64,000 nucleotides of DNA from an uncultured Candidatus Saccharibacteria bacterium (GCA_964511435.1 CAZEFH010000003.1:1283-65282), one strand, 5' to 3'; counted from the first letter of the stretch, positions 1 to 62,251 are shown. Numbers and translations are program-made. Notes: generated by a model from the letters alone, not told the origin.

Positions 1-221
1 TGGCATCATAATACCATTTGATAAAACCATACTGCCTTTTCGCTGCTGAGTGTTCTGTTTGTATTGTTTTTAGAAGCTCTTTTTCTTCACCTCGAGCTAG
101 GCGTATCGTCCATTCATCAATAATTGGAGTTAACCCAAGGTCCTCGAGTTTCTTGATAAGGGAAACCTTCTCATTCCTCTTCTTGGAACTTCCGCAAATA
201 ACTAGTTTCATAATGAAATAA
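1..221 (-). CDS. Hypothetical protein, N-terminal part only (start codon at 219-221, continues past the window edge)
   Basis: Reverse-strand reading from ATG at 221 gives MKLVICGSSKKRNEKVSLIKKLEDLGLTPIIDEWTIRLARGEEKELL... with no stop before position 1. The N-terminal MKxVICGSS resembles Rossmann/LOG-like starts, but this is weak. The + strand ORF 18..221 in the track is judged spurious. Confidence 0.35.
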
Positions 222-242
222 TACCACATGTATGCGATAAAA

Positions 243-321
243 CAAAAAAGGCTTAATAAAGCCTTAAAATATTCATGGTGGAGCATAGTAGAAGTAGTTT
301 TGAACTACTTCTACCCACCAT
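243..321. repeat. Copy 1 of a repeat resembling the tmRNA 3'-end plus its terminator (terminator hairpin aaggctt..aagcctt, then catggtggagc, then a 12-bp extended hairpin)
   Basis: aaaaaggcttaataaagccttaaaatattcatggtggagc closely matches 9741-9781 (the ssrA terminator plus the last 9 nt of tmRNA) and 1088-1130. It is followed by a perfect hairpin, gtagaagtagtt/aactacttctac nested in atggtgg/ccaccat. Confidence 0.6.
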
Positions 322-336
322 TATTATATCGTTAGT

Positions 337-1029
337 TTATTTAGCTGTTTGTGTTTTATGCTTACGTGGAATGAAATAGTTGAGGTGCCACAAGATATGG
401 AGAATCGATATCTCTGCCATTACTGTGCCACCGATAACGTGCCAGTATATCGTGGAGAAGGGAAAGTTTAGTACTAGGCCATAAGTGACTTTGAGCACGA
501 GTAAAATTCCAAATATTCCAGCCGGGATAAAGCTAAAGAGAAGGGTATAGTTCCAAATTTTCTTATGAGTAATAGTTTTAATTTTTTCGAACTTCGACAG
601 TAACCAAGTAGCCAGATATAGACCAAGAGTAACTATTGTCGTTTCTAAGAAGTAATAATTTTTTGTTGGATTCTTGATTTCATTTGTCTTCTCTTGTTGC
701 TTTTCTGAGACAATCTGATCCGTAGAGGTCCCACTACCCGTAACAAGTGATTTAGCTATGTCATTAGCGGAGCTGGGCTCAAGGCCAGCATTGTCATGAA
801 GTTTCTGAATCTCATCAGAGGTACTGATGGTTATCCCTAGTAGCTTACCAAGATTCTCGGCATATTTGGCGGCAGATATTTTATAAAAATCAGCAACTTC
901 CTGAACGCTCATTGCCTTAATTTCACCGCCAGATAGGCTTGTCCCATCATCTTCGGCAAAAACAGCTGTAAGGGGGGAAAGAGTGAGTAATAAACCGAAA
1001 GTAATAAGAATTGATTTTAGCTTTTTCAT
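337..1029 (-). CDS. Secreted or membrane-anchored protein of unknown function (N-terminal signal peptide, C-terminal transmembrane helices)
   Basis: 230-aa ORF. The N-terminus MKKLKSILITFGLLLTLSPLTAVFA looks like a signal peptide, and two to three hydrophobic helices lie near the C-terminus. Flanked by repeat copies 1 and 2. Confidence 0.5.
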   Translation of the reverse strand: MKKLKSILITFGLLLTLSPLTAVFAEDDGTSLSGGEIKAMSVQEVADFYKISAAKYAENLGKLLGITISTSDEIQKLHDNAGLEPSSANDIAKSLVTGSGTSTDQIVSEKQQEKTNEIKNPTKNYYFLETTIVTLGLYLATWLLSKFEKIKTITHKKIWNYTLLFSFIPAGIFGILLVLKVTYGLVLNFPFSTIYWHVIGGTVMAEISILHILWHLNYFIPRKHKTQTAK

Positions 1030-1087
1030 TTGGCTCCTTTATTATTACTTAAAATAATATGAAAGATAACTGAGAAAAAGCTGAAAA

Positions 1088-1158
1088 CAAAAAAAGCTTC
1101 GGAAAGCCTTAATAATTGTCATGGTGGAGCATAGTAGAAGAAGTTTGGAACTACTTTT
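1088..1158. repeat. Copy 2 (degenerate) of the tmRNA-3'-end/terminator-like repeat
   Basis: aaaaagcttcggaaagccttaataattgtcatggtggagcatagtagaagaagtttggaactactttt. The hairpin arms carry mismatches. There is no upstream gene on the strand it would terminate, so it is an orphan copy. Confidence 0.55.
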
Positions 1159-1241
1159 CAAATATTCCAATAAATATCACGATTTAGGAAATAGTTAGAA
1201 AAAAGCGTTTAATATTTAATATTAAATGTTATAATCGTGGC

Positions 1242-2891
1242 ATGATAATATTAGGCGTTAATGGTTGGTTTACTCGAAGTCATGATGGTTCCGCGGCATT
1301 AATTAAAGATGGAAAAATAGTTGCTTTCGCTGAGGAAGAAAGATTTACTAGGTATAAACATGCGTTTGAGCAGCTCCCCCATAGAGCAATTCAGTCTTGT
1401 TTAGATAAAGCAGGTATAACGTCAGATGAAATTGATGTTCTTGCAATTGGCTGGGATTATGAACTTAAGTACCGTTTACGCAATATTGAGTTTCCTGATA
1501 CCGATCTTGCAGATTTATATTTACCAAAAGATATTTTTAAAAGAAAAAAAGAGCCCAAGGTGGTAATTGTTAATCACCATTTAGCTCATGCAAGCCTAGC
1601 ATACAGGCTGTCAAAAGCCGACAAGTCAGCAATCTTGGTAGTTGATGGTCAAGGTGAAGATTCTTCTATTTCAATTTGGAAGGGTAATGACGGTGAGATT
1701 GAGCTTATCCAAAAGTATCCCCTAGAAGCTTCAGTGGGGTTTTTTTATGAATCTATCAACAAGATGATTGGATTCGATTACTTTGATAGTGGTAAAACCA
1801 TGGGTCTTTCTAGTTATTCTCAAGATTCGCTTGAAATAACAGAGATTGATACATATGGCAGTGATGTGACATTCAATTTACCAAACAAAATTGAATTTAG
1901 AAATGATTGTCTTGATGAGCAAATGCAGTTTATGGATGCGTGGGACAAAGTATATTCTAAATATGGCTTAAAGAAGTCTGAACAGAAAAATATGAATAGT
2001 GCTTTTTACGAGAATGAGTATTTACTAGCAGGAACGGCGCAGAAAAATCTTGAAAGAATTATGCTTAAATTAGTATTTATTGCCAAGGAAATTGTCGGTA
2101 CAGATAATATCTGTATTGCTGGAGGGACAACTCTAAACTGTAATGTGAATTCTATTATCAAGAAATCTAACATTTTCAAGAATGTTTTTGTCTTTCCAGT
2201 AACAAATGATACGGGCGTTAGTCTTGGGGCGGCATTGGAGACAAGCTATAATGAAGGAGGCGAAAAGTTCTATGATTTTACTCCTTATCTAGGTCCAGAC
2301 TTTTCTGATACAGAAATTGAAGATTGTCTAATAAGACATAAATTGCATTATGCAAAGTCTGAAAATGTTGCGAAGGAAGCCGCTAAGTATCTGAGTGAAG
2401 GCAAGATTATTGCTTGGTTTCAAGGAAGGATGGAGGCAGGTCCTAGAGCGCTTGGAAATAGAAGCATAATAGCCAACCCAACTATCAAGGGTATGAATGA
2501 TAAAGTAAATAACATAAAAAACCGTGAATTATGGAGACCGTTAGCACCAAGTGTATTAGCCGACTACGCAGAAGAGATATTTGATGATAGTTTTTATTCT
2601 CCCTATATGCTTCATACTTTTAATATTAAACAAGACTATTTATCTCGTATACCCGCTGTTTGTCATGTTGATAAATCGGCACGCCCACAAATGGTAAAAA
2701 TTGATGATAATCCTCTGTTTTATTCCTTAATAGATGAATTTAAAAATACTACAGGGGTCCCAATAGTTCTAAATACTTCGCTAAATGGACCAGGAGAGCC
2801 TCTTATTTGTAAGCCAGACGAAGCAGCAAAAATATTATTAAGGACAAAGATTGACTATCTTTTTATCGGCAACTATATAGCTTGGAAATAG
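1242..2891 (+). CDS. Carbamoyltransferase, NodU/CmcH/TobZ family (Kae1-like + YrdC-like fold)
   Basis: 549 aa. The N-terminus ILGVNGWFTRSHDGSAALIKDGKIVAFAEEERFTRYKH and the HHLAHA motif are typical of O-carbamoyltransferases of the NodU/NovN/TobZ family. The size also fits. Confidence 0.75.
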   Translation: MIILGVNGWFTRSHDGSAALIKDGKIVAFAEEERFTRYKHAFEQLPHRAIQSCLDKAGITSDEIDVLAIGWDYELKYRLRNIEFPDTDLADLYLPKDIFKRKKEPKVVIVNHHLAHASLAYRLSKADKSAILVVDGQGEDSSISIWKGNDGEIELIQKYPLEASVGFFYESINKMIGFDYFDSGKTMGLSSYSQDSLEITEIDTYGSDVTFNLPNKIEFRNDCLDEQMQFMDAWDKVYSKYGLKKSEQKNMNSAFYENEYLLAGTAQKNLERIMLKLVFIAKEIVGTDNICIAGGTTLNCNVNSIIKKSNIFKNVFVFPVTNDTGVSLGAALETSYNEGGEKFYDFTPYLGPDFSDTEIEDCLIRHKLHYAKSENVAKEAAKYLSEGKIIAWFQGRMEAGPRALGNRSIIANPTIKGMNDKVNNIKNRELWRPLAPSVLADYAEEIFDDSFYSPYMLHTFNIKQDYLSRIPAVCHVDKSARPQMVKIDDNPLFYSLIDEFKNTTGVPIVLNTSLNGPGEPLICKPDEAAKILLRTKIDYLFIGNYIAWK

Positions 2892-2960
2892 TTTACACAA
2901 AGGTAAGAATGTGTTATAATCGCGTCGTATAGTTAGGCACTATAAGAACACTGTTAGGGG

Positions 2961-3569
2961 GTGGGTGACTTGAGGACTGAGCCGTTCTTTGATGAGAAGA
3001 ACCGTCTAGTCAAAGAAACAATCCAAGACGGGAGGGTCGTAAGGTTCTACTTGGGAGATGATTGTCAGGGGGTCATCCACAACAAAGATGGGGAAGAATA
3101 CGTATTCGATCAGCGAGGTAAGCGTCGCTGGAGGGGTACTATTCATCCAGAAGACATGGCCGTCGAATCAGAAGCTATGGACGATTTCGGAGTCATCCTG
3201 ATTAAACCAGACGGCGTTGACCAGGCAGGTGTAATCACCGAGCTCCTCACAGAGGAGGCTTTCACCGTTCTTGTGGCAAGGGAAATGATTCTGACTGTTA
3301 CTATAGTCGAAGAATTGTATCCCATGTTCTACCACGAGAGTTACGAGACCCCCTTCTTCGATTACATGACTTCCGGAGTTGTAAAGGCAATGATTGTGCA
3401 GAGTGATAGTTGCACATCGAGACTCCAGAAGTTCAAGGGAGTTATCCGTAGCAGATACGGCAGGAATGGTCACATGCGTAATATGCTTCATTGTTCAAGC
3501 AGTCACAAAGATGCGCTCAGAGAGGCATCTGTGCTATTCTGTATAGGACAATTGAGGCGAAACAACTAG
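2961..3569 (+). CDS. Nucleoside-diphosphate-kinase-like domain protein with a roughly 65-aa N-terminal extension
   Basis: The core FGVILIKPDGV...GRNGHMRNMLHCSSS matches the NDK signature (IKPDGV; GRN..H.SDS with the catalytic His). The ORF is noticeably GC-richer than its neighbours. The start codon is uncertain: GTG at 2961, TTG at 2970 or an internal ATG near 3157. Confidence 0.5.
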   Translation: MGDLRTEPFFDEKNRLVKETIQDGRVVRFYLGDDCQGVIHNKDGEEYVFDQRGKRRWRGTIHPEDMAVESEAMDDFGVILIKPDGVDQAGVITELLTEEAFTVLVAREMILTVTIVEELYPMFYHESYETPFFDYMTSGVVKAMIVQSDSCTSRLQKFKGVIRSRYGRNGHMRNMLHCSSSHKDALREASVLFCIGQLRRNN

Positions 3570-3605
3570 CGGAGGACGCTTAGGCGTCCTCCGCTGAAGG
3601 GAAAA

Positions 3606-4943
3606 ATGTTTATTAAATTACTCTTGTTAATATATATAGTTTTTTCTATACGCTGGATTTACAAAATCTTAAGTTCATATATTTGGATTATTACCTCAAG
3701 AAAAGCTAAAAATAGTTCTTCCGAAGATAAAAAACATTCAATATTCATTTTACTCCCGGTTTTATATGAAAATTATCGCTTACAAGAAGCAGTTGATTAT
3801 TTTAGACAAATATTAGAAAAACACCCAAATATTAAACTTGTCATAATTACTACAGTCCGTGAAAGCTGTTACGAAGATTCGATAACTATAGATTTGGCAA
3901 AAAAGTTAAGCTCGAACAATATAATTCATATCCATGCAAACGACCCTGGTGGAAATATGGCAACCCAACTAAATTGTGCGGTCGATGCACTTTCTGCTGG
4001 TAAATATTTTGAAGACAAAAGGATAGTTTTTGGGGTTTATAATGTTGATTCTAGACCAGAAATAGAAACTTTTGATTGGTTATTAAGTCATCCAAATTTA
4101 AAGGATGATTTATTTTGTTTTCAACAGTATGGTGATTATACAAAAAATACAGACACAATCTCGAAGGCAAGGAATAAATATAGTTTGTTGGCATCATCTT
4201 ATTGGCAAAATAGATGGAGTATGGGCTACGAGATTGCTAGTGCTCTAAGACAATTTTCTAAATTTAGAATACTCAACAATAACTGGAGAACTAATTATTG
4301 TGTTGGTCACGGGGTATTTATAAGTGAGAGCCTGCTAAAAAAGATTGATGGTTTTTGCGGTAAAACTCATAACGAAGATATTTTTCTTGGTCTTACTATA
4401 TCCAATTTAAAGGTCAGGATTTTCCCCATTCCATTTTTTGATTTAGCAGATTCTCCAGATGATTTGTTTTATTTATTCAAACAGAAAACTAATTGGTTTA
4501 TGGGGACATTTCAAGTTATAAAATATTACAGCATTATAAAAGAAAACAAATATTTTGATCATAATAAATTTAGACTTGCTTTTCAGACCCTTCAAATATT
4601 TTTATTATCTCAGTTTTGGATTTGGGGACCAAATGTACTTATGCTTTTGTCCACATATGCTTTATTAACATTAAATTTACAGCTCATATATCTTACCTTG
4701 CTCACATATGTTTTCTACCTAGTATTGCCAAACACACTAGGACAATACTATTTAAAAAAGACAAAGTTTGAGAAGAATTCACTGCTTAATCTATTTTTTA
4801 TATCTTTTTGTGGAAGTTGGCTTGCATCAATTATTCATGGTATTGCACCATTCAACTCTATAAGAAAGTATTTTTTACAAAAGTTACTTGGTATAGAATT
4901 TTTAAAAGGGAAAACGGATATGAGGTTTTATGAAGAGGAATAA
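3606..4943 (+). CDS. Membrane protein with an N-terminal glycosyltransferase-like (GT-A-like) domain and a C-terminal polytopic membrane domain
   Basis: 445 aa. There is an N-terminal transmembrane segment, then a soluble domain (…LLPVLYENYRLQEAV…IHIHANDPGGNMATQLN…), then at least four hydrophobic helices at the C-terminus. Its end overlaps the next gene. The family assignment is tentative. Confidence 0.4.
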   Translation: MFIKLLLLIYIVFSIRWIYKILSSYIWIITSRKAKNSSSEDKKHSIFILLPVLYENYRLQEAVDYFRQILEKHPNIKLVIITTVRESCYEDSITIDLAKKLSSNNIIHIHANDPGGNMATQLNCAVDALSAGKYFEDKRIVFGVYNVDSRPEIETFDWLLSHPNLKDDLFCFQQYGDYTKNTDTISKARNKYSLLASSYWQNRWSMGYEIASALRQFSKFRILNNNWRTNYCVGHGVFISESLLKKIDGFCGKTHNEDIFLGLTISNLKVRIFPIPFFDLADSPDDLFYLFKQKTNWFMGTFQVIKYYSIIKENKYFDHNKFRLAFQTLQIFLLSQFWIWGPNVLMLLSTYALLTLNLQLIYLTLLTYVFYLVLPNTLGQYYLKKTKFEKNSLLNLFFISFCGSWLASIIHGIAPFNSIRKYFLQKLLGIEFLKGKTDMRFYEEE

Positions 4944-6546
4944 ACTGCGCGTAAAACTGGTTTATTATAGGGCAATGATGTCTCAATCAGCTGCTTCACT
5001 TACTATGGGTAGGATTGCTAGCCTTCTAAAAAGAGATAATTTTTTATATGATTTAGTGCTCCTAGAGTCAGATGATATCAATACGATTGAGAGAATCGGA
5101 CTAGACGGCTCAGTGATAATCGCAAAACCAAACTTTAAAGACTATGACATTATTTTGCCGCTACTAAAAAAGATTAAGCAGAAGTGCTCTGATATGCAAA
5201 TATTCTTATGTGGTCCTTATATCAGTTTGGATTACAAAAATATTATCCTAAAAGAAAATTGGCTTGATGGCATAATAGTAGGATTTCCTGAGGAACCAAG
5301 TCATAATCTCGTAAAAGCTATTAGCCAGGGTAAATCTATTGATGATATCGATAATGTGGTTACCCTTAAGAATATTGAACAGTTTAAGATAAGTTCAAAT
5401 AGGATTGATTTCGAGGACTTGCCGACTCCTACTAGAGATATAGAAAGATTTGAGGCTGGTTCATTCACGAACATAGAAGCTTCAAGGGGTTGTGATAACT
5501 TTTGTAGCTATTGTCACATACCTTTATATAGCAGGCAGTGCAACCTAACGAAGAGGGAGCTTAGAAGTAACGAGTCGATAGTAGATGAGATCGAAGAGCT
5601 AAGGGCTATGGGCAAGAACTTCTTGATTTTTAATGATAGTCATTTCTGGTCAAACGATTGTGACAATGAACGGGTGATCAACTTCTGCGACATCTTAATC
5701 AAGAGAAAACTTTCAATCCACTTTTATATTTATCTAAGAAGTTTTCCATTCCCAAATGAGGAAGTGCTTTTGAAATTGAGAGATGCTGGTCTGGCTAGGG
5801 TCTTTATAGGGGTTGAGAATGCTACAGTAGAAAATCAGAAAAGATATAATAAAATTGTAAATCTTGATCAGTTTGATCAAGTTAAATCTAGATGTGAAAA
5901 CATGGGAATAAATGTCCATATTGGGTTCATGCTTTTTAATCCTTACCTTGCATTTAGTGAGATTAAGCCTAATCTGGATTACTTATTAAAAATTAATAAG
6001 ATGTTTCGTTTAGGAGTAATAACTGAACCTGCTCGGGTTATTCCTGGAAGTAAGCTTGAAAAGGATTTAGAGCGAGACGGACTATTGTTTAGAGCCGAGT
6101 CATATAATGCTCCTGTTTTTGAATATAAATTTAAAGATGAGAAAACTGCAATACTATTTCGAGAAATTCGACAGTTATTTATCGGGGAAATATATCTACA
6201 CAGATATAGATTTGAGTATTACGCAATTACTGGACAATTATTCCGAGATCTGACAGAACTAAGCTATTCTGGAATTTCGAATACTTTTAACAAGGAATAT
6301 GAGCAATTCTTACTTTCTAGAGATTACGGTTCACGTTTGATTTATGACTTCCTGATTAGTCAAATTGATGAAATCGATATTAATGGAAAAATAAGCCTTG
6401 ATAACAAGAATGTTTTTAAGGATAAATTTATTGAAGCATGTGCTGACATAGAATTGAAGTGGACTATGCTAAAAAATTCTATTAGTAAAACAGCTGCAAA
6501 AGATGTAATTAAAGAGGTGTATTTTGGCAAAGAAAGAATTAGTTAG
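4930..6546 (+). CDS. B12-binding-domain radical SAM enzyme (class B radical SAM, likely C-methyltransferase or similar tailoring enzyme)
   Basis: 538 aa. CDNFCSYCHIP is the CxxxCxxC radical-SAM cluster motif. The N-terminal roughly 180 aa resemble a cobalamin-binding domain, as in the Fom3/GenK/TsrM class. Overlaps the upstream gene by 14 nt. Confidence 0.65.
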   Translation: MKRNKLRVKLVYYRAMMSQSAASLTMGRIASLLKRDNFLYDLVLLESDDINTIERIGLDGSVIIAKPNFKDYDIILPLLKKIKQKCSDMQIFLCGPYISLDYKNIILKENWLDGIIVGFPEEPSHNLVKAISQGKSIDDIDNVVTLKNIEQFKISSNRIDFEDLPTPTRDIERFEAGSFTNIEASRGCDNFCSYCHIPLYSRQCNLTKRELRSNESIVDEIEELRAMGKNFLIFNDSHFWSNDCDNERVINFCDILIKRKLSIHFYIYLRSFPFPNEEVLLKLRDAGLARVFIGVENATVENQKRYNKIVNLDQFDQVKSRCENMGINVHIGFMLFNPYLAFSEIKPNLDYLLKINKMFRLGVITEPARVIPGSKLEKDLERDGLLFRAESYNAPVFEYKFKDEKTAILFREIRQLFIGEIYLHRYRFEYYAITGQLFRDLTELSYSGISNTFNKEYEQFLLSRDYGSRLIYDFLISQIDEIDINGKISLDNKNVFKDKFIEACADIELKWTMLKNSISKTAAKDVIKEVYFGKERIS

Positions 6547-7393
6547 TTTTCCTAAAGCTATTGAATTTCAGACGGCTTCTTTTTGTAATGGAGGTTGCTC
6601 CATCTGTCCCTATAAAGAGGTCTCAACGAAGCTTCCAGCGGGTGTTATAGAAGAAGATATATTTAAACGTTTAGTCGATGAGATTTCGGAGCATGAAGAA
6701 GTTAGAATAATCCCTTATTTTAATAACGAACCATTCTTAGATAAAAAATTTGTGGACAGACTTAGGTATATCAGATCCGTTTGTCCAAAACATGTTATAG
6801 AAATATCTACCAATATATCTATGCTGACCAGCAATGTACTCGATAAAATGGACGGCCTATACATTGATGATTTAAGAATCAGCTTCTTTTCTTTTAATGA
6901 GAAGTCTTATGAAAATATTATGACTGGTCTAAATTGGGATGTTTCGAAAACAAATCTAGATAATCTGGTGAAAAATAATAGATACAAAAGAATTTTTGGA
7001 AAGATTAGTATAGTTAATGTCGATATAGAAGAACTAAAAAAAGAAGATATAGATTTAGCTAAAAAATATTGCGAAGAAAAAGGACTCAGTTATGAATTTT
7101 GGGGGTTTTTCGATAGGGCGGGCAATGTTAAAAATAGAACGAATAATGTACATAAAGAAGTCGTTAGGGGTTGTGAACAGAATAGACCAATAGAAAGAAT
7201 GCACATAATATTCGATGGGAAAGTTATTTTGTGCTGTATGGACTGGAAGAGAGAATATATCTTAGGCGATTTGAAAATGGATAGTATAAAAGAGATTTGG
7301 AATTCACAAGAATATTCAAAAATAAGAGACGAAATATATGATCCGCAAATTTCGCCTCCCGATCTTTGTAAAAAATGTAAATTAGCAATCTAA
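6524..7393 (+). CDS. Radical SAM protein with a C-terminal SPASM/twitch-like Cys-rich domain
   Basis: FCNGGCSICPY (CxxxCxxC) sits near the N-terminus. The C-terminus GKVILCCMDW…CKKCKLAI carries extra Cys clusters typical of SPASM domains. Overlaps the upstream gene by 23 nt. Confidence 0.6.
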   Translation: MAKKELVSFPKAIEFQTASFCNGGCSICPYKEVSTKLPAGVIEEDIFKRLVDEISEHEEVRIIPYFNNEPFLDKKFVDRLRYIRSVCPKHVIEISTNISMLTSNVLDKMDGLYIDDLRISFFSFNEKSYENIMTGLNWDVSKTNLDNLVKNNRYKRIFGKISIVNVDIEELKKEDIDLAKKYCEEKGLSYEFWGFFDRAGNVKNRTNNVHKEVVRGCEQNRPIERMHIIFDGKVILCCMDWKREYILGDLKMDSIKEIWNSQEYSKIRDEIYDPQISPPDLCKKCKLAI

Positions 7394-8053
7394 ATGAACC
7401 GAAAAACTGGTTATCAAAAATCAATAATCGTTGTTGAGGGAAATGTTTATTCGGGCAAGACGACACTTTGCCTTAAACTCTCAAGCTCTACTAAGTTTAA
7501 GATATTTGAAGACCATGCCTTTGTTGAATTACCGAGAGCTATTCGGAATGATGCAGATGCTCTCTCAAACCAGATTAAATACCTTGAGATAGAAGTATCT
7601 AGATCAGAAAAGATTGGTGAAGAAAAGGGCTACATACTAGACAGGTCAATAATTTCTATTTTTGCTTTTACTTACTATCTTTCAACTCAAGGATACCAAA
7701 TAAAAGAATTTTTTCTTGATGTTGTTGAAAAACTGATACGTGAAAATAGGATAACGATACCTGACTACCTGATTTATCTAAAAGTAAGTGCTGATGAGTT
7801 AGCTGAAAGATTTCAAATTAACAGAGATGCTTCAAAAGCCACGGAAGAGTTTTATGTCAATGAGGAATTTATTGGTATTATGGACCACTTTTGCTGTAAT
7901 TTAATCAGTAAGGTTGGTGGATTAGTGATTACTGGAGAGGATGAGGACAATGTACTAACGAAATCAATCCAATATATTGAAGCTGGCAAAAGGGTTAATA
8001 AAGAGATATTTTTTCAGGTACTCTTCAGTTTAATGAGAGTTTTCGATGAGTAA
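7394..8053 (+). CDS. Deoxynucleoside/nucleoside-monophosphate-kinase-like P-loop protein
   Basis: IIVVEGNVYSGKTTL is a P-loop, followed by DRSIISIFAFTYY (the dNK/dCK-like DRS motif). 219 aa. Directly abuts the previous gene's stop. Confidence 0.55.
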   Translation: MNRKTGYQKSIIVVEGNVYSGKTTLCLKLSSSTKFKIFEDHAFVELPRAIRNDADALSNQIKYLEIEVSRSEKIGEEKGYILDRSIISIFAFTYYLSTQGYQIKEFFLDVVEKLIRENRITIPDYLIYLKVSADELAERFQINRDASKATEEFYVNEEFIGIMDHFCCNLISKVGGLVITGEDEDNVLTKSIQYIEAGKRVNKEIFFQVLFSLMRVFDE

Positions 8054-8699
8054 ATGGTCTAATATATATACAAAATCTATATCTAAAGTAGGCGGATTCG
8101 AAGAATACTATCAAAGTAAACTTATAAGTAAAAAGATTTTGATTGATACTATTACAAGTGAATATGGCGGCACAAAACCTATTGCTGAGATTGGATCGGG
8201 TACAGCAATATTGCCAATTTATTTTTCGAAAAAAGGGTATGATTCTTGGGGGATTGAAGCTGATTTTGAAATGTATACATTATCACGTGAATTTGCCGAG
8301 AAAATTGAATCAACAAATATCAAACTTATTAATGATAATTTTCTTGAATTAGAATTGCCCGAAAAATCTCTCAAATTAATTTACAGTAATGGCTTGCTGG
8401 AACATTTTGATGATGAGAAAATAAAATTCTTAGTACAAAAACAGCTGATGGTCGCGGATAGAGCTATTATATCTGTTCCGACTGATTACTTTATGTCTAG
8501 TCAAGCTGTATACGGTGATGAAAGATTTCTACCTATAAAATATTGGGAACAATTGATTACTTTGTCTGGTGGTAATATCTTATATAAGAGATATTTTGAA
8601 TATAATAATCATTTTCTAAAAATATTAAATAATATAACACAAGGCAGACTTAGATTTAATCCGCCCTTTGTTATATTCATTGTTTCTAAGAATTCGTGA
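8046..8699 (+). CDS. Class I SAM-dependent methyltransferase
   Basis: IAEIGSGTAILPIYF is the glycine-rich SAM-binding motif I, followed by an acidic motif II (WGIEAD). 217 aa. Overlaps the upstream gene by 8 nt. Confidence 0.55.
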   Translation: MSKWSNIYTKSISKVGGFEEYYQSKLISKKILIDTITSEYGGTKPIAEIGSGTAILPIYFSKKGYDSWGIEADFEMYTLSREFAEKIESTNIKLINDNFLELELPEKSLKLIYSNGLLEHFDDEKIKFLVQKQLMVADRAIISVPTDYFMSSQAVYGDERFLPIKYWEQLITLSGGNILYKRYFEYNNHFLKILNNITQGRLRFNPPFVIFIVSKNS

Positions 8700-9108
8700 T
8701 TTCTAGCGTTCTTTTTATGAGACTTTGAAAGTAATTTGGAACTTTGTTATTCTCGCCAAATTTCTCTAGATCTAAAATATCGACCCACTTATAGTCCTGA
8801 TGTTCCTCCGGGTTTAGGATTACATTGCCTGAGATAAAATTGCTTATAAAGAAAACGGTAATATAGTGCATCTCTTTTGAACTCTCGTAGTTAGCAAAGT
8901 AGTGAAATAATTTTGGTTCTGTCGTTGAAATACTTGTTTCTTCTGTTGTTTCTCTAGACACACCCATTGTAAGGTCCTCACTATTCTCAAGAGAGCCTCC
9001 TGGAATATCCCAATAATTTGGAAGATTAGATACGCTTGACGCTCTTTTTAGTAAAAGAACTTTGTCATCATTTCTTACTACATTGTGAATAATTATTTTT
9101 ATTGCCAT
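8686..9108 (-). CDS. NUDIX hydrolase
   Basis: GGSLENSEDLTMGVSRETTEETSI matches the NUDIX box Gx5Ex7REUxEExGU. 140 aa. Confidence 0.7.
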   Translation of the reverse strand: MAIKIIIHNVVRNDDKVLLLKRASSVSNLPNYWDIPGGSLENSEDLTMGVSRETTEETSISTTEPKLFHYFANYESSKEMHYITVFFISNFISGNVILNPEEHQDYKWVDILDLEKFGENNKVPNYFQSLIKRTLEITNS

Positions 9109-9111
9109 TTA

Positions 9112-9720
9112 TTAACCTTCCTTTATTTTAGTAATTATTTCCTTATAAATTATTCTATGAGCGAAATTATTTGGATGAAATCCATCATACGTAATTTTAT
9201 TATATTTAATTAATTTATCAAAAACATTAATATAATTAATCTGGTTATCTATACACACATTATGCAAAAGATGATTATATTCTTTAATATTTGAGTTAGT
9301 TTGATATAAACTAGGTCTCCAAATGACAGGGTATGTTTTTATTTCATTAACAGGTGGAATGCTGATAATATATACATTACTTGAATATTTTTTTGTGACC
9401 TTAGATATTTCAGAAATATTTTTTCTAAAATCTTCTGGATTAATAAAGTACTTATTATTTTTTATATATTTTTGCGAATCATTTATACCTACAAAAATGA
9501 CTATTTTGGAATTGTTATTACGGTTTCTGGCTTTAAGTTCCGAATCTATTCTTTGAAGCAATTTTGTAGATGTGTCGCCAGGTATACTGAGATTATAAAA
9601 TTCTGAAATATTGGTTTGGCATTTATTAAAACTTTTTCTTATTAATGCTGTCCATTCCTTAGCCTTTGAACTCGTTTCAAAGGATAGGCTGTCACCAAAC
9701 ACAAATATCGTACTATTCAT
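9112..9720 (-). CDS. SGNH/GDSL-family hydrolase (esterase/acylhydrolase)
   Basis: The N-terminus IFVFGDSLSF carries the GDS(L) block I with the catalytic Ser. A DGFHPN-like block V (YDGFHPNNFAH) with the catalytic His lies near the C-terminus. Confidence 0.65.
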   Translation of the reverse strand: MNSTIFVFGDSLSFETSSKAKEWTALIRKSFNKCQTNISEFYNLSIPGDTSTKLLQRIDSELKARNRNNNSKIVIFVGINDSQKYIKNNKYFINPEDFRKNISEISKVTKKYSSNVYIISIPPVNEIKTYPVIWRPSLYQTNSNIKEYNHLLHNVCIDNQINYINVFDKLIKYNKITYDGFHPNNFAHRIIYKEIITKIKEG

Positions 9721-9740
9721 AATATTATTATAGCATAAAT

Positions 9741-9768
9741 AAAAAGGCTTAGGAAAGCCTTAATAAAT
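9741..9768 (-). terminator. Rho-independent terminator of ssrA
   Basis: Reading the minus strand after the tmRNA CCA end gives a hairpin aaggcttt-ccta-aagcctt followed by ttttt. Confidence 0.7.
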
Positions 9769-9772
9769 GTCA

Positions 9773-10165
9773 TGGTGGAGCTGGTGGGTACTGCCCCCAC
9801 GTCCGAAAGCGGAATCAGACTGATTTGTAGCAACCTTACTCTAGTCTAGTAGTTTCGATCAAGTGGTAAAGACTGGAGAAAATCCACTATTTCTATTCAC
9901 TAAGTCTTAGGCTCGCTTAGTAAACTCACGAGTAGCATCCTGACATATATGACACTCAGACAGACGATTCAGGCCTCGACTGCTAGAATGGTTACTGTTA
10001 TTAGGCAGCAACTGGCGCAAAACTGTTTACGCGGAAAGCGTTTGCAATCTTGCTAGCAAAAGTGTTTGCACTTATGCGTTGATACGCTTGGTAACGCGGA
10101 CGTATCATTCCGCGGATTGCATCATTCTGATTTCAAGATACCTTCGTCGAAGCTATTTCAGCCCC
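9773..10165 (-). ncRNA. ssrA: tmRNA (transfer-messenger RNA, SsrA), about 393 nt
   Basis: The minus strand reads 5'-GGGGCUGAAAUAGCUUCGACGAAGG… and ends …GGACGUGGGGGCAGUACCCACCAGCUCCACCA-3'. The acceptor stem GGGGCUG/CAGCUCC has a G3:U pair, the Ala identity element. There is a T-arm-like GUGGG/CCCAC, a terminal CCA, and an internal ORF GCA AAC GCU UUC CGC GUA AAC AGU UUU GCG CCA GUU GCU GCC UAA UAA. This gives the tag ANAFRVNSFAPVAA with a double stop, as in canonical SsrA tags ending in AA. Confidence 0.85.
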
Positions 10166-10193: not shown

Positions 10194-10221
10194 ATTATAG
10201 CACAAAATAGTAAAAAATCAA
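10194..10221 (-). promoter_or_regulatory. Putative sigma70-type promoter of ssrA
   Basis: The minus strand reads TTGATT-16 nt-TATAAT, with the -10 about 29 nt upstream of the mature tmRNA 5' end. This fits a short precursor leader. Confidence 0.45.
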
Positions 10222-11237
10222 GTATTTTGTTTGAAAGATTCAAGTTTTTGCAAGTAGAAAAACCCTAGACCTAGTGGTAACCAGAAATTGAGACCACGGA
10301 AGGCGATAGCGATTGCGGTGGCAGATACAAGTGGAACTCCGAAGGAGGTGAAGATTAGTACTATTACGGCTTCAACCGCCCCTACTCCCTCTGGCTGGGG
10401 CGAAATAACACGGGCAACCTCGGCAAAGACATAGCCGGCAACCAGGGCTCCGTAGTGAATCTTGATATCAAATGCGACAAAGATTACGAATAAAGACAGA
10501 ATGTTAATAATGTGGGCAATCAGGGCGTATCCTAGGGTTTCAGCAATTTTAAGATAATGTCCACTTATCATCGAAGCAGCTTCTCGAAGCTCTTCCGTGA
10601 TTGATTCGCCCCACTTCTTCAAGAGTTTCCTTTTACTACGGAATATCTTTAAGAAAAAGTTAACCACCTTTGCTATCCCGTTTAAGAACTTTGTAGTACC
10701 AAGGGGGTTCTTGGCAGCAGTGAATAGTAGTAGTGGTGGTAAGGCAGTAGGAATAACGAATATAGTGGCCCCGATAATTTCATAGGTATTGAGAAAGTTA
10801 TTTCGGGATAGAAAGTAGACTGCAAATATCAGGAGTACAGTAAATGAGGCATAGCTTGAAACAGTACTGACGAGGTAGCCAACCACAGCATGAGTAGAAG
10901 ATTCTTTTCTGCGCGCTGCATCATCGGCAAAAAGAATGGTGCCTGAGTTGCCTGCTGTCGGAGCCAGGGTATTTACAAACAGGGATCCGAGAACGAGGGG
11001 AATAAGATGTTTTAACTTGCGATACATCTTTACTGCTTCGAAAGCCTTCTTGGTCATAAATGAATATACAACGTAGTAGACGGCTTGAAGTAGGGCGGCT
11101 ACTAGAAGCCAGCGCCAACTGCCTCGGGAAAATGCATCTACAACTTCGGACAGCTCTTTTAGATGAAAAAATACATAAGTAATAAATCCTATAAAGAGGA
11201 GCGAAAAAATAATATTACGTGCATTAAGCTTCTTCAT
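10218..11237 (-). CDS. Polytopic membrane protein of the lysylphosphatidylglycerol-synthase-TM-like / flippase-like (UPF0104) family
   Basis: 339 aa with about eight transmembrane segments. Overlaps the upstream GT2 gene by 14 nt, giving a GtrB-like GT2 plus flippase-like arrangement. Paralogous in architecture to 28963..29976. Confidence 0.5.
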   Translation of the reverse strand: MKKLNARNIIFSLLFIGFITYVFFHLKELSEVVDAFSRGSWRWLLVAALLQAVYYVVYSFMTKKAFEAVKMYRKLKHLIPLVLGSLFVNTLAPTAGNSGTILFADDAARRKESSTHAVVGYLVSTVSSYASFTVLLIFAVYFLSRNNFLNTYEIIGATIFVIPTALPPLLLFTAAKNPLGTTKFLNGIAKVVNFFLKIFRSKRKLLKKWGESITEELREAASMISGHYLKIAETLGYALIAHIINILSLFVIFVAFDIKIHYGALVAGYVFAEVARVISPQPEGVGAVEAVIVLIFTSFGVPLVSATAIAIAFRGLNFWLPLGLGFFYLQKLESFKQNT

Positions 11238-11958
11238 GGCTATATTTCTTGATAAATCTACGATAACGATTGTTGAGAGCAGCCATTTCTAGGAATTGCA
11301 GACCGACACGATAGAAGGGGAAAGCGCGGAAAATATTTCCAACCATTCTAAAATCAGCCATTACACCCTGCCAGTAATCCATCTTCTCGTGCTTTGGGGT
11401 GGCGTAAAGATTCGGTAGGTAGACACTGATAAACGTTTTACCGCGGTCTAGAAATGAATCGTTCATTAGTACTTCGAGGCCATAGCCGATACGGGGCTTG
11501 GTCCAGATATTGTAGTCAGCCAGCATTTTCTTTTTGATGCAGCGCTCACCACTAACGAAGTCCATTTTGAACCATTTGTAGATATTCGAGGAATTGCCTC
11601 GAATACTGAGAGTCCAATCAACGAGATTGGTTAGGACCGGAATCGCAAGATCAGTTACGTTCTCGGCTGTAAGATGCTTAAGATCGGCATCGAGAAGCAT
11701 CACCACATCGTTTTTTGCATATTTAAGTCCATATTTTACAGCTAAAGTTTTGCCTAAAGAGTCCTTATGAACGTGTACGTGGGCCTTGTATTTTCGGGCA
11801 ACTTCGACGGTATTATCGGTACAACCGTCGCAGACCACAACTACGTCGTCAACCATCGGATGGTTACACACAATCTTTAGAACATTGCCGATACGATTTT
11901 CTTCATTACGAGCTGCGATGATGACGCTGACTTTTTTCTCTCTTGCTTCCATATGCAC
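11224..11958 (-). CDS. Family 2 glycosyltransferase (polyprenyl-phosphate sugar transferase-like)
   Basis: VSVIIAARNEENRIGNVL…VVVCDGCTD…LLDADL is the GT2 DxD-type N-terminal signature. 244 aa. Confidence 0.7.
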   Translation of the reverse strand: MHMEAREKKVSVIIAARNEENRIGNVLKIVCNHPMVDDVVVVCDGCTDNTVEVARKYKAHVHVHKDSLGKTLAVKYGLKYAKNDVVMLLDADLKHLTAENVTDLAIPVLTNLVDWTLSIRGNSSNIYKWFKMDFVSGERCIKKKMLADYNIWTKPRIGYGLEVLMNDSFLDRGKTFISVYLPNLYATPKHEKMDYWQGVMADFRMVGNIFRAFPFYRVGLQFLEMAALNNRYRRFIKKYSHEEA

Positions 11959-28583: not shown

Positions 28584-28874
28584 ATGGTCAAGTTCTGCAA
28601 GAACGAGGGTAGCGGTGTTCGTGGCCGAGTGGTCACCATCCTTAGGGATGAGGGTATGATGCGGGTTCTGACAGAGGGAGACACCATCTCTCTCCAGTTC
28701 TCGAAGTGCCTCATACCGGTCGAATTCCATGACGGCATCGTCTGCTACGATGAGCCTGGCTGCTCAGATGGCGTGGAGCCGAACTCTCCTGTCATGGTTT
28801 TCCCTGATGGTCACTGGGTGACTCAGGAAGCTCTTGACCACGCTCCGAAAGTCGACACCCGCGTCGACACTTAG
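28584..28874 (+). CDS. Hypothetical small protein (GC-rich islet), 96 aa
   Basis: ATG 28584 is preceded by a ggagg RBS. The product is MVKFCKNEGSGVRGRVVTILRDEG… It is followed by a GC-rich terminator hairpin. Confidence 0.4.
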   Translation: MVKFCKNEGSGVRGRVVTILRDEGMMRVLTEGDTISLQFSKCLIPVEFHDGIVCYDEPGCSDGVEPNSPVMVFPDGHWVTQEALDHAPKVDTRVDT

Positions 28875-28930
28875 GCCGACCCCGGAGAGAGCGGAAGGAT
28901 CCGCCCCTCGGGGTCGGCCTTCTGCTTTTC
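28873..28930 (+). terminator. GC-rich rho-independent terminator
   Basis: aggccgaccccg…cggggtcggcct is an 11-bp stem, followed by tctgcttttc. Confidence 0.6.
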
Positions 28931-28962
28931 AAGAACGAAGTTTGGAGTATAATTATCTAGTT

Positions 28963-29976
28963 ATGAAACGATTTGTGATTTCTATAGTTATAGCGGCTCT
29001 GTTTGTATATTTCTTGTCAAAGAATTTTGACATTGTTACCGGAACATTTTCGGTAATTTCACATGTGTCACCGCTATTTTTGGTAACAGCGGTGCTAATT
29101 TCTGTAGTGTCATATTATCTTATCAGTCGAGCGAGTCGTTCCGTATTTGCAATAATGGGAATGGATAAATCACTCACAGAAATGTTCAAGCTTCAGTTCG
29201 CTTCATCAGCAATTAATATAATCGTACCGACTGGTGGTGCCTCAATAATGTATCTCTACTCTGAAGAAGCCAAGAAGCATGATGAGCCTGTTGCGGCGGC
29301 GGCTGCGGCTTATATGGTCTGGATTCTGGCGACTTATACTTCTCTTTCAATCCTCCTTGCGATTGCTATGACATATCTTTTGTTGACAGGACACCTTACT
29401 GCATTTATTTACATTCCAGCGGCGATTCTCTTCTTTGCACTAATCATAATTCTTCTAGGAATGAGGCTTTCGTCTAAACAGACTACACTCCTTCGAAAAA
29501 TATTTGCTTTTATTATTCGACTCATAAATCGCATCCTTAGTTTGTTCCACAAGATAACACTACGGGAAGAGTTAGCTGATGAGCTTATTCTGGAGGTTCA
29601 GGATGCGCGCGGTAAAATTCGCTCAAATCCGCGGGCTTTCTGGACGGCGATACTAGAAATACTTGGATCTCATCTTTTCTACCTTATCGCAGCGGAAGTA
29701 ATATTTCTTTCCTTCGGCTTTCATCCGCTTTATCGAGTACTTCTTGCTGGTTATGCGGCCGGAGCCCTATTCACAATTGTGTCTCCAACACCGAATGGAA
29801 TTGGTTTTGCCGAGGTAGGGATGGCAGCCGTTTACACAACCCTCGGAGTAGATGTTCACTTAGCTGGTGTAGTGGCAGTTATCTCTAGAATGCTGACTTT
29901 CTGGATTCCGATGCTGATTGGGTTCCTAGTCCTTCAACGAGATAACATCAAAAAGCTTTCTCTAAAGACAAAATAG
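28963..29976 (+). CDS. Polytopic membrane protein, flippase-like / LPG-synthase-TM-like (UPF0104) family
   Basis: The start is revised to ATG 28963 (MKRFVISIVIAALFVYFL…). It has about eight TM helices. The C-terminal motif …VSPTPNGIGFAEVGMAAVYTTLGV… is typical of this family. The track's longer ORF begins inside the upstream terminator. Confidence 0.5.
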   Translation: MKRFVISIVIAALFVYFLSKNFDIVTGTFSVISHVSPLFLVTAVLISVVSYYLISRASRSVFAIMGMDKSLTEMFKLQFASSAINIIVPTGGASIMYLYSEEAKKHDEPVAAAAAAYMVWILATYTSLSILLAIAMTYLLLTGHLTAFIYIPAAILFFALIIILLGMRLSSKQTTLLRKIFAFIIRLINRILSLFHKITLREELADELILEVQDARGKIRSNPRAFWTAILEILGSHLFYLIAAEVIFLSFGFHPLYRVLLAGYAAGALFTIVSPTPNGIGFAEVGMAAVYTTLGVDVHLAGVVAVISRMLTFWIPMLIGFLVLQRDNIKKLSLKTK

Positions 29977-30701: not shown

Positions 30702-31355
30702 ATGAAATTTTTATTAACATCAGCGGGTATAACTAATAAGAGTATTGAAACTGCCTTCTTTGATCTGCTCGGGAAGGAAGCCGCGGAAACAAAGGTGGTT
30801 TTTATACCGACAGCTGCGAACGTGGAGACCGGAGATAAACACTGGCTAATAAAGGACTTGGCAGATCAGGAAAGTCGTGGCTTTGCTGAGTTTGATGTAG
30901 TGGATATAGCAGCCGTCCCTAGAGACATATGGGAGCCACGTCTACGAGAGGCAAATGTTCTCGTTTTTGGTGGCGGTAATACATTTTATCTCATTAACTG
31001 GATAATAAAGTCTGGTTTGGGAGATATCTTGCCACAGATATTGGAAGACAAGTTGTGGGTAGGAATAAGCGCTGGTAGTATGGTCACTGGCTTAAGTCTA
31101 GCAACTACGAGTGATCGTATTTTTGCGGAAAACAAGGGAGAATTTACTAGTAATGACGGTTTAAAGTTTGTACCCTTTAGCCTGAAGCCTCACTACCTTT
31201 CTGATTCTTTTCCAGGAAATAATGATGAAAACTTGCTTGTTACCGCAGCTGAGCTTGGAACAAAGCTGTATGCGATTGATGATGATACAGCTATCAAGGT
31301 TGATGGGGAAAATATTGAAGTTGTTTCCGAAGGTAAGTGGAGGGAGTTTAACTAG
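30702..31355 (+). CDS. Peptidase S51 family protein (dipeptidase E / cyanophycinase-like)
   Basis: VVFIPTAANVE…VLVFGGGNTFYL…GISAGSMV carry the S51 Ser-His-Glu triad context. 217 aa. Confidence 0.6.
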   Translation: MKFLLTSAGITNKSIETAFFDLLGKEAAETKVVFIPTAANVETGDKHWLIKDLADQESRGFAEFDVVDIAAVPRDIWEPRLREANVLVFGGGNTFYLINWIIKSGLGDILPQILEDKLWVGISAGSMVTGLSLATTSDRIFAENKGEFTSNDGLKFVPFSLKPHYLSDSFPGNNDENLLVTAAELGTKLYAIDDDTAIKVDGENIEVVSEGKWREFN

Positions 31356-31895
31356 ATGAAAAAAGTTATATTCATCCATGGCTGGGAAAGTGGACCAAGC
31401 GAACACTGGTATCAGGACGAAAAAACAGTATTAGAGACGAGAGGCTACGAGGTTTATATTCCTGAAATGCCTGGCGGCTCTTTTGTCAAGGAAGGTGAAT
31501 GGGTAGAAACTCTCGTTAAACTAGAGCCAGATTCTGAAACTATCCTCATCGGTCACTCTTTGGGCGCACCGACCATTCTACGTTATTTGGAATTAGCCGA
31601 TGTCAAAGTTGATAAAGTTTTCTTAATTGCTGGATTTGCCAGCTCACTTCACCTAGACTATCCAAATGCAGAGTATCCAGATGCCTTTGTAAATCATTCG
31701 TTTGACTGGGAAAAGATTCGACAAGGGGCGGGTGAATTTATTGTTCTGAATCAAGACCATGACCCATGGGTACCATTCGAAAAAGGCGAAGAACTGGCTG
31801 AAAATTTGCACGGTAAACTAGTGAAAGTGGCCGGCGATAATCACTTTGATAAGATGGATTTAGATTTGATAAATAGAGAGATACAATGTCGTTAA
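31356..31895 (+). CDS. Alpha/beta-hydrolase-fold serine hydrolase (YdeN/RBBP9-like)
   Basis: VIFIHGWESGPSEHWY…LIGHSLGAPTIL contains the GxSxG nucleophile motif. 179 aa. Confidence 0.55.
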   Translation: MKKVIFIHGWESGPSEHWYQDEKTVLETRGYEVYIPEMPGGSFVKEGEWVETLVKLEPDSETILIGHSLGAPTILRYLELADVKVDKVFLIAGFASSLHLDYPNAEYPDAFVNHSFDWEKIRQGAGEFIVLNQDHDPWVPFEKGEELAENLHGKLVKVAGDNHFDKMDLDLINREIQCR

Positions 31896-32434
31896 TAGAT
31901 GTACTAAATGAAGACGGGACGAAAACTGGCAAGGAATTATCAAAAGACGAAATACATAAAGGTGGTTTCTGGCACCGTGCCGCTCATTGTTGGATATATA
32001 ATTCAAAAGGAGAAATGCTATTTCAGCTAAGGGCAAAGGATAAGGATAGTTACCCTGGTCTCTTAGATATCTCTGCGGCTGGTCATGTAGATGCAGGCGA
32101 AAGCCCCGAAGACTCAATGATTCGTGAAATAAAAGAAGAAATCGGATTGGACGTAAATATTAACGAGTTAATAACACTGGGAGAGAGAAGGGTTTCGAAA
32201 TATATCCCTGAAATACAATGGCAGAATAATGAGATTAATTCGGTATTTCTGTATAAATATGACGGTGATATAAGTAAATTGGAATTCCCAGACAGAGAAG
32301 TTGAGAGCCTAGAATGGGTTTCAATCAATCAACTAAAGTCAGATCTTTTGGATACTGAAGAGGCAAAAAGATATGTTGATCACGGTGATTATTACAAATT
32401 TGTTATTCATGAAGTTGAACAAAGACTTAAATAG
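31886..32434 (+). CDS. NUDIX hydrolase
   Basis: AGHVDAGESPEDSMIREIKEEIGLDV is a NUDIX box. 182 aa. Confidence 0.65.
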   Translation: MSLIDVLNEDGTKTGKELSKDEIHKGGFWHRAAHCWIYNSKGEMLFQLRAKDKDSYPGLLDISAAGHVDAGESPEDSMIREIKEEIGLDVNINELITLGERRVSKYIPEIQWQNNEINSVFLYKYDGDISKLEFPDREVESLEWVSINQLKSDLLDTEEAKRYVDHGDYYKFVIHEVEQRLK

Positions 32435-32443
32435 AGCAATAAG

Positions 32444-53822: not shown

Positions 53823-53850
53823 GAAATAGAATTTAATATTATTTTCCTAA

Positions 53851-53880
53851 AACAAGCACGAAACGTGCTTGTTTTAATTT
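53851..53880 (+). terminator. Rho-independent terminator after the LDT gene
   Basis: aacaagcacg-aaac-gtgcttgtt followed by ttaatttt. Confidence 0.7.
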
Positions 53881-53919
53881 TGGGAAAAGCATAAAATATA
53901 TGTATAACTTGTGAGGGTG

Positions 53920-62127: not shown

Positions 62128-62251
62128 AAGCAAAGTCACTACTCTGTGGATAAAAGTAAGGGCCCAATACAGACCTAAAATAAGTACATTTAGTGCTTGT
62201 TTTAGGTATGAGATAAGCATAAAATATATGTATAAGAATTCACCCCGTTAA

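Follow-up and report, generated by a model that had tools for sequence, protein, structure and literature searches.

A probable tandem array of integrase-less gene cassettes at the 3' end of the tmRNA gene in a Candidatus Saccharibacteria genome

In this study, we investigated a stretch of 64,000 nucleotides (nt) from an uncultured Candidatus Saccharibacteria bacterium (GCA_964511435.1 CAZEFH010000003.1:1283-65282; hereafter the window), at whose left end the 3' terminus of ssrA, the gene for transfer-messenger RNA (tmRNA), recurs outside the gene itself. The best explanation of our data is that the window begins inside an array of gene cassettes hanging off the ssrA 3' end of this genome. On balance, we favour the view that the array was built by serial site-specific insertion of integrase-less cassettes at that end, with the enzyme supplied in trans. 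Saccharibacteria (TM7) are ultrasmall epibionts with genomes under 1 Mb, and to our knowledge the way in which they acquire accessory genes is poorly understood.

An earlier note on this DNA, made from the sequence alone, had placed the repeated terminator downstream of ssrA; the gene lies on the minus strand, hence downstream means leftwards in the coordinates. The features of the array, from ssrA outwards, are as follows.

10194..10221, minus: promoter-like site before ssrA, TTGATT-16-TGnTATAAT, 10/12 matches with TG in a consensus scan (putative function)
9773..10165, minus: ssrA (tmRNA), Rfam RF00023, full length, 84.8 bits, E 2e-31
9773..9781, minus (TGGTGGAGC on the plus strand): core copy 3, GCTCCACCA, the final 9 nt of ssrA and putative primary attachment site
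9741..9772, minus: spacer and intrinsic terminator (hairpin 9761..9744, terminator scan) directly 3' of ssrA, followed by TGCTATAAT and the start of a GDSL gene
1162..9740, mixed strands: cassette A, a 10-gene block, guanine-cytosine (GC) content 33.5%, the largest segment seen among the arrays
1131..1161, minus: motif copy 2 (...AAGTAGTTCCAAACTTCTTCTACTAT) at the distal end of cassette A, nhmmer 47.2 bits, E 2.6e-13 (1161..1122)
1122..1130, minus: core copy 2, GCTCCACCA, from sequence and alignment
1090..1121, minus: spacer and slightly degenerate terminator hairpin 3' of core 2, 93% identical to the post-ssrA unit
315..1089, minus: cassette B, one gene, 337-1029(-), encoding a 230-amino-acid (aa) membrane protein of unassigned function
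285..314, minus: motif copy 1 (GTAGAAGTAGTTCAAAACTACTTCTACTAT), a perfect 12-bp hairpin, nhmmer 39.7 bits (314..276)
276..284, minus: core copy 1, GCTCCACCA, from sequence and alignment
244..275, minus: spacer and intrinsic terminator (hairpin 265..248, terminator scan) 3' of core 1
1..243, minus: start of cassette C, with gene 2-211(-), which covers codons 1-70 of a nucleoside 2-deoxyribosyltransferase-like protein of 149 aa

The 3' end of ssrA (...CCCACCAGCUCCACCA) falls at 9773, and the minus strand reads ...CCCACCA-GCTCCACCA. The 41-nt unit at 9741-9781, which comprises core, spacer and hairpin (9744-9761), is repeated at 1090-1130 with 93% identity and at 244-284 with 68% ungapped identity and one 1-nt indel; we number them copy 3 (at ssrA), copy 2 (1090-1130) and copy 1 (244-284). 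All copies lie on one strand at start-to-start distances of 846 and 8651 nt, and a degenerate 27-nt repeat pattern gave 2 matches vs 0.00 expected from 100 shuffles. The alignment upholds the claim of the earlier note that the ssrA 3' end and its terminator recur as same-strand direct repeats near 1088-1130 and 243-290, and copy 2 is indeed an orphan terminator, as a co-oriented gene upstream of it is absent. The number of three copies was understated, and at least four exist: the Logan contig L001, 100% identical to window 1-1600, reaches 278 nt further left and ends (...ATAGTAGTTCCAAACTTCATCTACTACGCTCC) in a fourth motif copy about 270 nt past the window's left edge (L001 1847-1878). On the same contig, the gene of cassette C is complete (1372-1821), with the 149-aa open reading frame (ORF) followed by this fourth motif copy. 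The source contig itself seems to begin near window position 1, within the array.

Copies 1 and 2 share about 30 nt more on the ssrA-proximal side of the core, which are without counterpart in the tmRNA; with this extension included, they align over 72 nt at 76% identity ungapped, or over 73 nt at 87.7% gapped. In both of these copies the 22-nt motif RGTTCCAAACTTCWTCTACTAY stands immediately 5' of GCTCCACCA; at copy 1, an extra TGGTGG (315-320) is complementary to the core. A 35-nt extension lacking from the tmRNA had already been noticed as a peculiarity of the two copies; it is real, but not incidental, for it contains the 22-nt motif, whose conservation beside the core we could follow through 22 distinct junction sequences on about 15 contigs.

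Relatives were found through homologs of the LPG synthase adjoining ssrA, a search route independent of the motif, which led to four loci in three genomes (L015; L016 and L017; L018) at 64-67% protein identity, one of the three genomes being a Candidatus Saccharibacteria. The gene order DinB...757-aa protein-ArgRS-SmpB-GT4-GT2-LPG synthase-ssrA is kept in all four loci, and the genes that follow ssrA are unlike in each genome: a Na/Ca exchanger, a serine hydrolase, ArsP and a ferredoxin in L015; a 143-aa protein, PRK and several unassigned proteins in L016; NmrA, a sigma factor and others in L018. Common genes return at a distal anchor of Zn_ribbon_2 and GalT, preceded in three genomes by a 103-aa membrane protein. 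The GC content of the variable stretch lies below both flanks in all four cases measured (window genome, L015, L016 and L018), and amounts in the window to 34.0% in 1-9772 vs 44.9% in 10166-64000, where the lowest 2-kb interval still has 39.0%. To the right of ssrA, the window carries ordinary chromosomal genes (LPG_synthase_TM, GT2, GT4, SmpB, ArgRS, DinB, BipA, CTP synthase, RmuC and PheST).

As the earlier note had proposed, we compared the ssrA neighbourhoods: the window's post-ssrA genes do not adjoin ssrA in the relatives, and the genes of cassette A were not found 3' of ssrA there. A completely empty ssrA site was seen in no relative examined. Locus P0010 is a true Coriobacteriia locus without ssrA nearby, and the P0002 contig stops before ssrA. 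The idea of an integrated element stands in so far as low GC, variable cargo and synteny mark foreign DNA, inserted in tandem at an ssrA-linked hot spot; the single decayed island that had been imagined gives way to a part of a lineage-wide array, consisting mostly of single-gene, integrase-less cassettes.

With reference to the motif, a search for bare GCTCCACCA in the homology-derived loci disclosed 1-3 extra same-strand copies 3' of ssrA per locus, and every extra copy was preceded by RGTTCCAAACTTC[A/T]TCTACTA[C/T], once interrupted by a 36-nt insertion (L018). An exact-pattern scan with the last 22 nt of motif plus core matched 5 stretches in GTDB (one genome per species) and 11 in JGI metagenome contigs, and none in IMG/VR; loci L019-L034 were retrieved with this pattern. 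The motif was likewise absent from the viral, phage and plasmid collections searched. The named genome matches were metagenome-assembled genomes (MAGs) of Saccharibacteria or the 'Patescibacteria group', with one Bacteroidota exception, a 'Cryomorpha' MAG (L022), which we discount as a chance match: it falls within an ORF of 405 aa, it lacks the motif's left part, and about 0.3 chance matches were expected by our own estimate. Positions to the left of the search pattern (GTTCCAAA) were conserved too, at 1.2-2.0 bits. An nhmmer model built from 23 distinct copies, used at a cut-off of E below 1e-5, matched the ssrA strand only and also recovered degenerate copies that complete the arrays, with nothing in window 9.8-64 kb and nothing in 125 kb of unrelated control loci. 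In the GTDB representative genome CAZCRI01, 3/3 exact motif copies lie within 4.3 kb 3' of ssrA, and an 848-kb contig contains two exact copies.

Conservation is sharpest over a 31-nt block, the motif plus core, that ends exactly at the ssrA terminus. Within the 22-nt motif, CTACTAY is fixed while its 5' partner varies, and conserved pairing or covariation is absent; the 31-nt site is asymmetric, with a direct repeat GYTCCA 22 nt apart and not a dyad. An exact core-plus-terminator pattern (GCTCCACCATGAN{5,9}TTAAGGCTTT) gave nothing in viral, genome or metagenome collections, and a 16-nt pattern gave 12 matches in viral contigs, no more than the chance expectation by our own estimate (one match was inspected).

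Read in the ssrA direction, the junctions consist of the 22-nt motif, the 9-nt core, a terminator and then often an extended -10 promoter. An intrinsic-terminator hairpin starts within about 25 nt of the core at 20 of the 31 distinct junctions (shuffle mean 1.8, maximum 6), the stems having several different sequences, and at several junctions the next start codon is closely preceded by TGnTATAAT or a -35/-10 pair. Most of the segments between junctions are single-gene, and single-ORF segments of 0.4-0.9 kb are common; L016 has five successive one-ORF segments of 561, 859, 812, ~673 and ~677 nt, and the other core spacings range from 368 nt to 2.2 kb, with the window's 8651-nt segment as the largest. 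Cassette genes occur in both orientations and the motif always on the ssrA strand. The cargo across the arrays includes Peptidase_S51, a C39-like peptidase, GIY-YIG, GNAT, radical SAM, PRK, transporters and a KAP-NTPase pair.

The cassette of the 230-aa protein (ORF230) has a homolog in L015, with 80% identity in amino acids and 73% in nucleotides over 821 nt. This alignment starts just past the upstream terminator and ends 8 nt beyond the downstream core, and the neighbours of the cassette differ on both sides between the window and L015. Of the two cassettes that meet at a junction, the one nearer to ssrA owns the motif. An additional TGGTGG(AG), pairing with the core, is present at both junctions of the ORF230 cassettes. 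One junction type (core plus TGACAATTATTAAGGCTT..AAGCCTTTTTTGTTTT) is 88-90% identical between the window and L015, as against about 73% in nucleotides for the shared genes of the region; junctions are therefore under strong constraint or horizontally exchanged. For the 149-aa gene of cassette C, the closest homologs looked up (57-61% identity, three contigs) lie amid ordinary chromosomal genes, none of them with the motif, and two of them are situated between metallophosphoesterase and AP-endonuclease genes, downstream of FtsH and MurJ. Judging by these sequences, the 149-aa gene may be an ordinary gene that was captured into a cassette.

In the mechanism that we propose, one recombination partner would be the terminal GCTCCACCA of ssrA, or an array copy thereof, and the other a cassette-borne site made up of the 22-nt motif RGTTCCAAACTTCWTCTACTAY and the same 9-nt core, in which the crossover would presumably take place. 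On insertion, ssrA would be made whole again, its new terminator, and often the promoter of the cargo, would be supplied by the leading bases of the cassette, and motif plus core would remain at the far end of the cassette. Through repeated insertion, the pattern ssrA-core-[cassette]-motif-core-[cassette]-motif-core... would build up, and the older a cassette, the further out it would tend to lie. Because the cassettes carry no recombinase, we infer that the enzyme acts in trans, from a gene at another place in the genome or on a helper element. Site-specific insertion is favoured because an intact RNA gene, same-strand termini, a distal conserved site and a proximal terminator together make up the topology of a circular cassette recombined with the ssrA 3' end. 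By analogy, this topology would be formally that of an attI x attC insertion, as in integrons, or of accretion at the attachment (att) sites of tRNA genes. Moreover, 4 of 18 short-contig ends from independent assemblies fall within 10 nt of a GCTCCACCA core (L001, L002, L030 and L031), which is indirect evidence of turnover; assemblies break at this locus, as they would if populations differed there.

Several observations weigh against this mechanism. No integrase, resolvase, recombinase or transposase domain (Pfam) was found among the 55 window ORFs scanned, including those of 1-9772, in agreement with the earlier note, which had seen no integrase in the element; nor was a recombinase found in the precomputed Pfam annotation of L015-L018 or in 10 larger ORFs of L020, L025, L029, L032 and L034. 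Neither a circular form nor an empty site nor an excision junction came to light. Simple tyrosine-recombinase core sites are dyads; the motif is not a dyad, and ssrA is without anything resembling the 22-nt motif. L015 is without a core upstream of its ORF230 homolog, the ORF230 cassette could have been inherited vertically and not moved, and cores without motif occur at L032:5879 and L034:4405. The array of L020 starts at a degenerate tRNA or tmRNA 3' fragment, 60 nt past tRNA-Leu(UAA), with ssrA not in view. The conservation of the last 22 nt is also partly inflated, loci L019-L034 having been fetched by that very pattern.

Two proteins were considered as the missing enzyme and set aside: a conserved 762-aa neighbour, for which Pfam and PDB matches of note are absent, and a 593-aa protein adjoining ssrA in L018, which resembles a glycogen-debranching enzyme. 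The notion that the L020 array sits at a tRNA ending in GCTCCACCA was rejected, as the tRNA-Leu ends 60 nt earlier. A DDE transposon with a 9-bp target duplication was likewise discarded, as the two cassette ends share no inverted repeat, and the motif as a general hairpin or attC-like structure does not hold, the long hairpin occurring at ORF230-cassette junctions only. In L018 (14882-14953), a hairpin-forming insertion of 36 nt (CCCGCCCAAACGGATGAACACGTTCATTTGCACGGGC) interrupts the motif between ...CATCTAC and TATGCTCCACCA, at the position where the T-arm sits in ssrA.

The alternative that survives best requires no dedicated recombinase: the junction modules (motif, core and terminator, about 75-100 nt) and ssrA would serve as portable homology through which transformation and RecA swap cassettes, while recombination between direct repeats would duplicate or delete them. 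We consider this combination rather unlikely. It agrees with the failure to find a recombinase among the ORFs scanned in the window and relatives, with the recurrence of same-type junction modules in front of different ORFs within one genome (three in the window, two in L016), and with the contig ends at cores, such as heterogeneous populations would give; Saccharibacteria are, in addition, reportedly naturally transformable. However, it leaves unexplained how motif and core first came to lie beside each new gene, why conservation is sharpest over the 31 nt ending at the ssrA terminus, and why the ORF230 homology ends within 8 nt of the core, and 31-75 nt of homology is short for efficient RecA recombination.

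A slightly more doubtful alternative, the decayed island of the earlier note, regards the segments as remnants of formerly autonomous prophages or islands that possessed their own ssrA-specific integrase, since deleted together with most of their other genes. Tandem accretion and decay at tRNA and tmRNA genes are well documented (10.1101/2020.12.28.424599; PMC5704250; PMC4383910), and the window's 8.6-kb block is island-like in size and GC. Against such decay, about 26 segments on 11 distinct contigs were without any integrase domain, many segments measure 0.4-0.9 kb and consist of one intact ORF equipped with a terminator and a promoter, the 22-nt motif has stayed nearly invariant instead of decaying, and in the collections searched it was found on no phage or plasmid record and no viral contig.

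It is improbable that the repeats form a module acting at the RNA level, namely a mimic of the tmRNA 3' end with a terminator, insulating or processing read-through from the strongly expressed ssrA, in which case the repetition would be uninformative on mobility. The hairpins of the terminators past the core share a conserved structure but not a sequence, and promoter-like TGnTATAAT follows several of them, as such a module would have it; however, cassette genes occur in both orientations, the motif is without conserved pairing or covariation, and neither the variable cargo nor the low GC is explained. The motif also could not be threaded manually as a T-arm plus acceptor strand, and the best match that Rfam offered for window 150-1300 in E-value mode had E = 1.1. 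Lastly, a genome-wide family of repetitive extragenic palindromic (REP)-like elements or terminators that merely resembles the ssrA end, named by the earlier note as a finding that would undo its proposal, is hardly credible: only the hairpin-plus-T-run shape speaks for it, and the copies are confined to ssrA arrays, with zero in window 9.8-64 kb, zero in the 125 kb of control loci, 3/3 exact copies of CAZCRI01 in its ssrA array and two only in the 848-kb contig.

Beyond serial insertion of cassettes at ssrA with the enzyme in trans, it is tentatively suggested that a dedicated and previously undescribed cassette-capture system may be at work. This would be an integron-like platform of Saccharibacteria and some other Patescibacteria, in which the ssrA 3' end serves as the fixed entry, the 31-nt site marks each cassette, and a recombinase encoded elsewhere shuffles single genes, including ones from chromosomal operons; we put this fuller picture forward as a possibility only. 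The recombinase is possibly of an unfamiliar kind, because the site is not a dyad.

A fixed hot spot at ssrA with a recognisable signature would give a simple marker for the flexible gene pool of Saccharibacteria in metagenomes, the cargo here including the KAP NTPase pair, peptidases, nucleotide-modifying enzymes and transporters. It would also explain the assembly breaks at this locus and point to a trans-acting recombination system that can be searched for. Should the 31-nt site suffice for insertion, genetics in these organisms would have a natural landing pad; if the arrays merely reflect accretion and decay of ordinary islands, they would be a routine example of ssrA as an integration site.

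The genes of cassette A, from the ssrA side outwards, are listed below; assignments are from Pfam/NCBIfam except where stated.

9112-9720, minus: GDSL hydrolase
8686-9108, minus: NUDIX
8046-8699, plus: methyltransferase
7394-8053, plus: deoxynucleoside-kinase-like (dNK-like) kinase
6524-7393, plus: radical SAM (rSAM)-SPASM protein
4930-6546, plus: B12-binding rSAM protein
3606-4943, plus: GT2-like protein, 445 aa, whose homologs carry PF13632
2961-3569, plus: NDK-like protein
1242-2891, plus: carbamoyltransferase

The GDSL and NUDIX genes are co-oriented with ssrA, and the operon from carbamoyltransferase to methyltransferase is convergent to them. The cluster (1242-9720) looks like a nucleoside or sugar-nucleotide modification pathway, and PADLOC matched cassette A to no defence system. 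The best homolog of the GT2-like protein on a longer contig shows 37% identity and lies on an archaeal contig (TFIIB, ribosomal S17e). Movement of cassette A as a unit found no support, as the homolog search with the 445-aa protein led to this archaeal contig with a different context.

Some further observations were made on ssrA and its surroundings. ARAGORN missed the tmRNA at 9773..10165, probably because its T-loop has the unusual reading GGCAGUA. A 33-nt segment identical to the T-arm and acceptor of the window's ssrA (9773-9805) was present in permuted two-piece tmRNA genes of three IMG/VR viral contigs (L035, L037 and L038). The LPG_synthase_TM protein (window 10218-11958) is 56% identical to a homolog from a genuine Coriobacteriia MAG (L045), again with GT2 directly upstream and in a different context, a likeness that may have arisen by exchange of genes between Saccharibacteria and Actinomycetota, to which the known Saccharibacteria hosts belong. 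A second LPG_synthase_TM paralog is located at window 28834-29976. On the 848-kb contig, one cassette (L029, reverse-complemented, 1462-5005) harbors a 716-aa KAP-family P-loop NTPase and a 453-aa protein of unassigned function, a pair that has the look of a defence system. Window 30702-33756 is a tight operon of lower GC with Peptidase_S51, Ser_hydrolase, NUDIX, Peptidase_S51 and a DNA-alkylation repair protein, in which motif copies are absent; the Peptidase_S51, Ser_hydrolase and NUDIX families recur in ssrA-linked variable regions of the relatives or the window, mostly as single-gene cassettes. A 62-nt direct repeat (53846-53907 and 62174-62235; 81% identity; hairpin and AT-rich tail) brackets a giant ORF of 2738 aa at 53911-62127.

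Comparing the array with known systems, the islands integrated in tRNA and tmRNA genes described in the Islander work (PMC4383910) use ssrA as an integration site, are bounded by displaced 3' fragments and can form tandem arrays. Our array resembles them in having the intact gene at one end (here a full-length tmRNA), same-strand copies of its 3' end as bounds, foreign composition (34.0% vs 44.9% GC), cargo differing between relatives and serial insertion. It differs in that no segment contains an integrase, usually a tyrosine recombinase, such as the Islander definition places inside the island, in that the shared ssrA segment is just 9 nt, and in its mostly one-gene segments, each closed by a conserved 22-nt motif that ssrA itself does not have. 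The tycheposons of Prochlorococcus are islands of streamlined genomes seeded at tRNA or tmRNA genes, with older inserts pushed inwards and scattered partial tRNA or tmRNA repeats (10.1101/2020.12.28.424599). Here, too, an island-seeding gene of this kind is flanked by full and partial copies; however, tycheposons are several kb long with tyrosine or serine recombinases and replication modules, hallmark genes that were not found in the window or the arrays examined, and the repeated unit here has its own conserved non-tRNA motif.

The cis-mobilizable elements (CIMEs) are att-flanked segments free of integration genes, which follow one another in series where a target gene ends (3') and are presumably mobilised by another element (PMC5704250). 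Cores on both sides of cassettes A and B, and the failure to find recombinase or transfer genes, are in line with such elements. However, CIMEs are decay products of identifiable integrative and conjugative or integrative and mobilizable elements of the same species, whereas no parent element is known here, and the present cassettes look purpose-built (terminator, promoter, ORF and motif).

Integrons share with our array one fixed entry site, mostly single-ORF cassettes of 0.4-1 kb without a recombinase of their own, a recombination-site-like repeat closing every cassette and a grab-bag of accessory cargo. On the other hand, intI is not beside the array, where in all relatives LPG_synthase_TM, GT2, GT4 and SmpB stand upstream of ssrA; the repeat keeps its sequence from copy to copy, unlike the imperfect palindromes of attC, and is without RYYYAAC/GTTRRRY boxes and covariation; and cassette orientations are mixed, promoter-like sequences (TGnTATAAT among them) are frequent and the entry site is the end of an RNA gene. 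The array thus fails the tests for an integron (intI, attC structure) as well as those for a classical island or tycheposon (integrase, hallmark genes). In the literature, we did not find a description of such arrays in Saccharibacteria; coverage was incomplete, hence this is weak evidence of novelty. The use of ssrA as a site, displaced 3' fragments, tandem accretion and integrase-less att-flanked remnants are already known, and what differs here is the one-gene scale, the built-in terminator and promoter, the non-tRNA motif conserved at every cassette end across divergent Saccharibacteria/Patescibacteria genomes and the recombinase-free state of about 26 segments.

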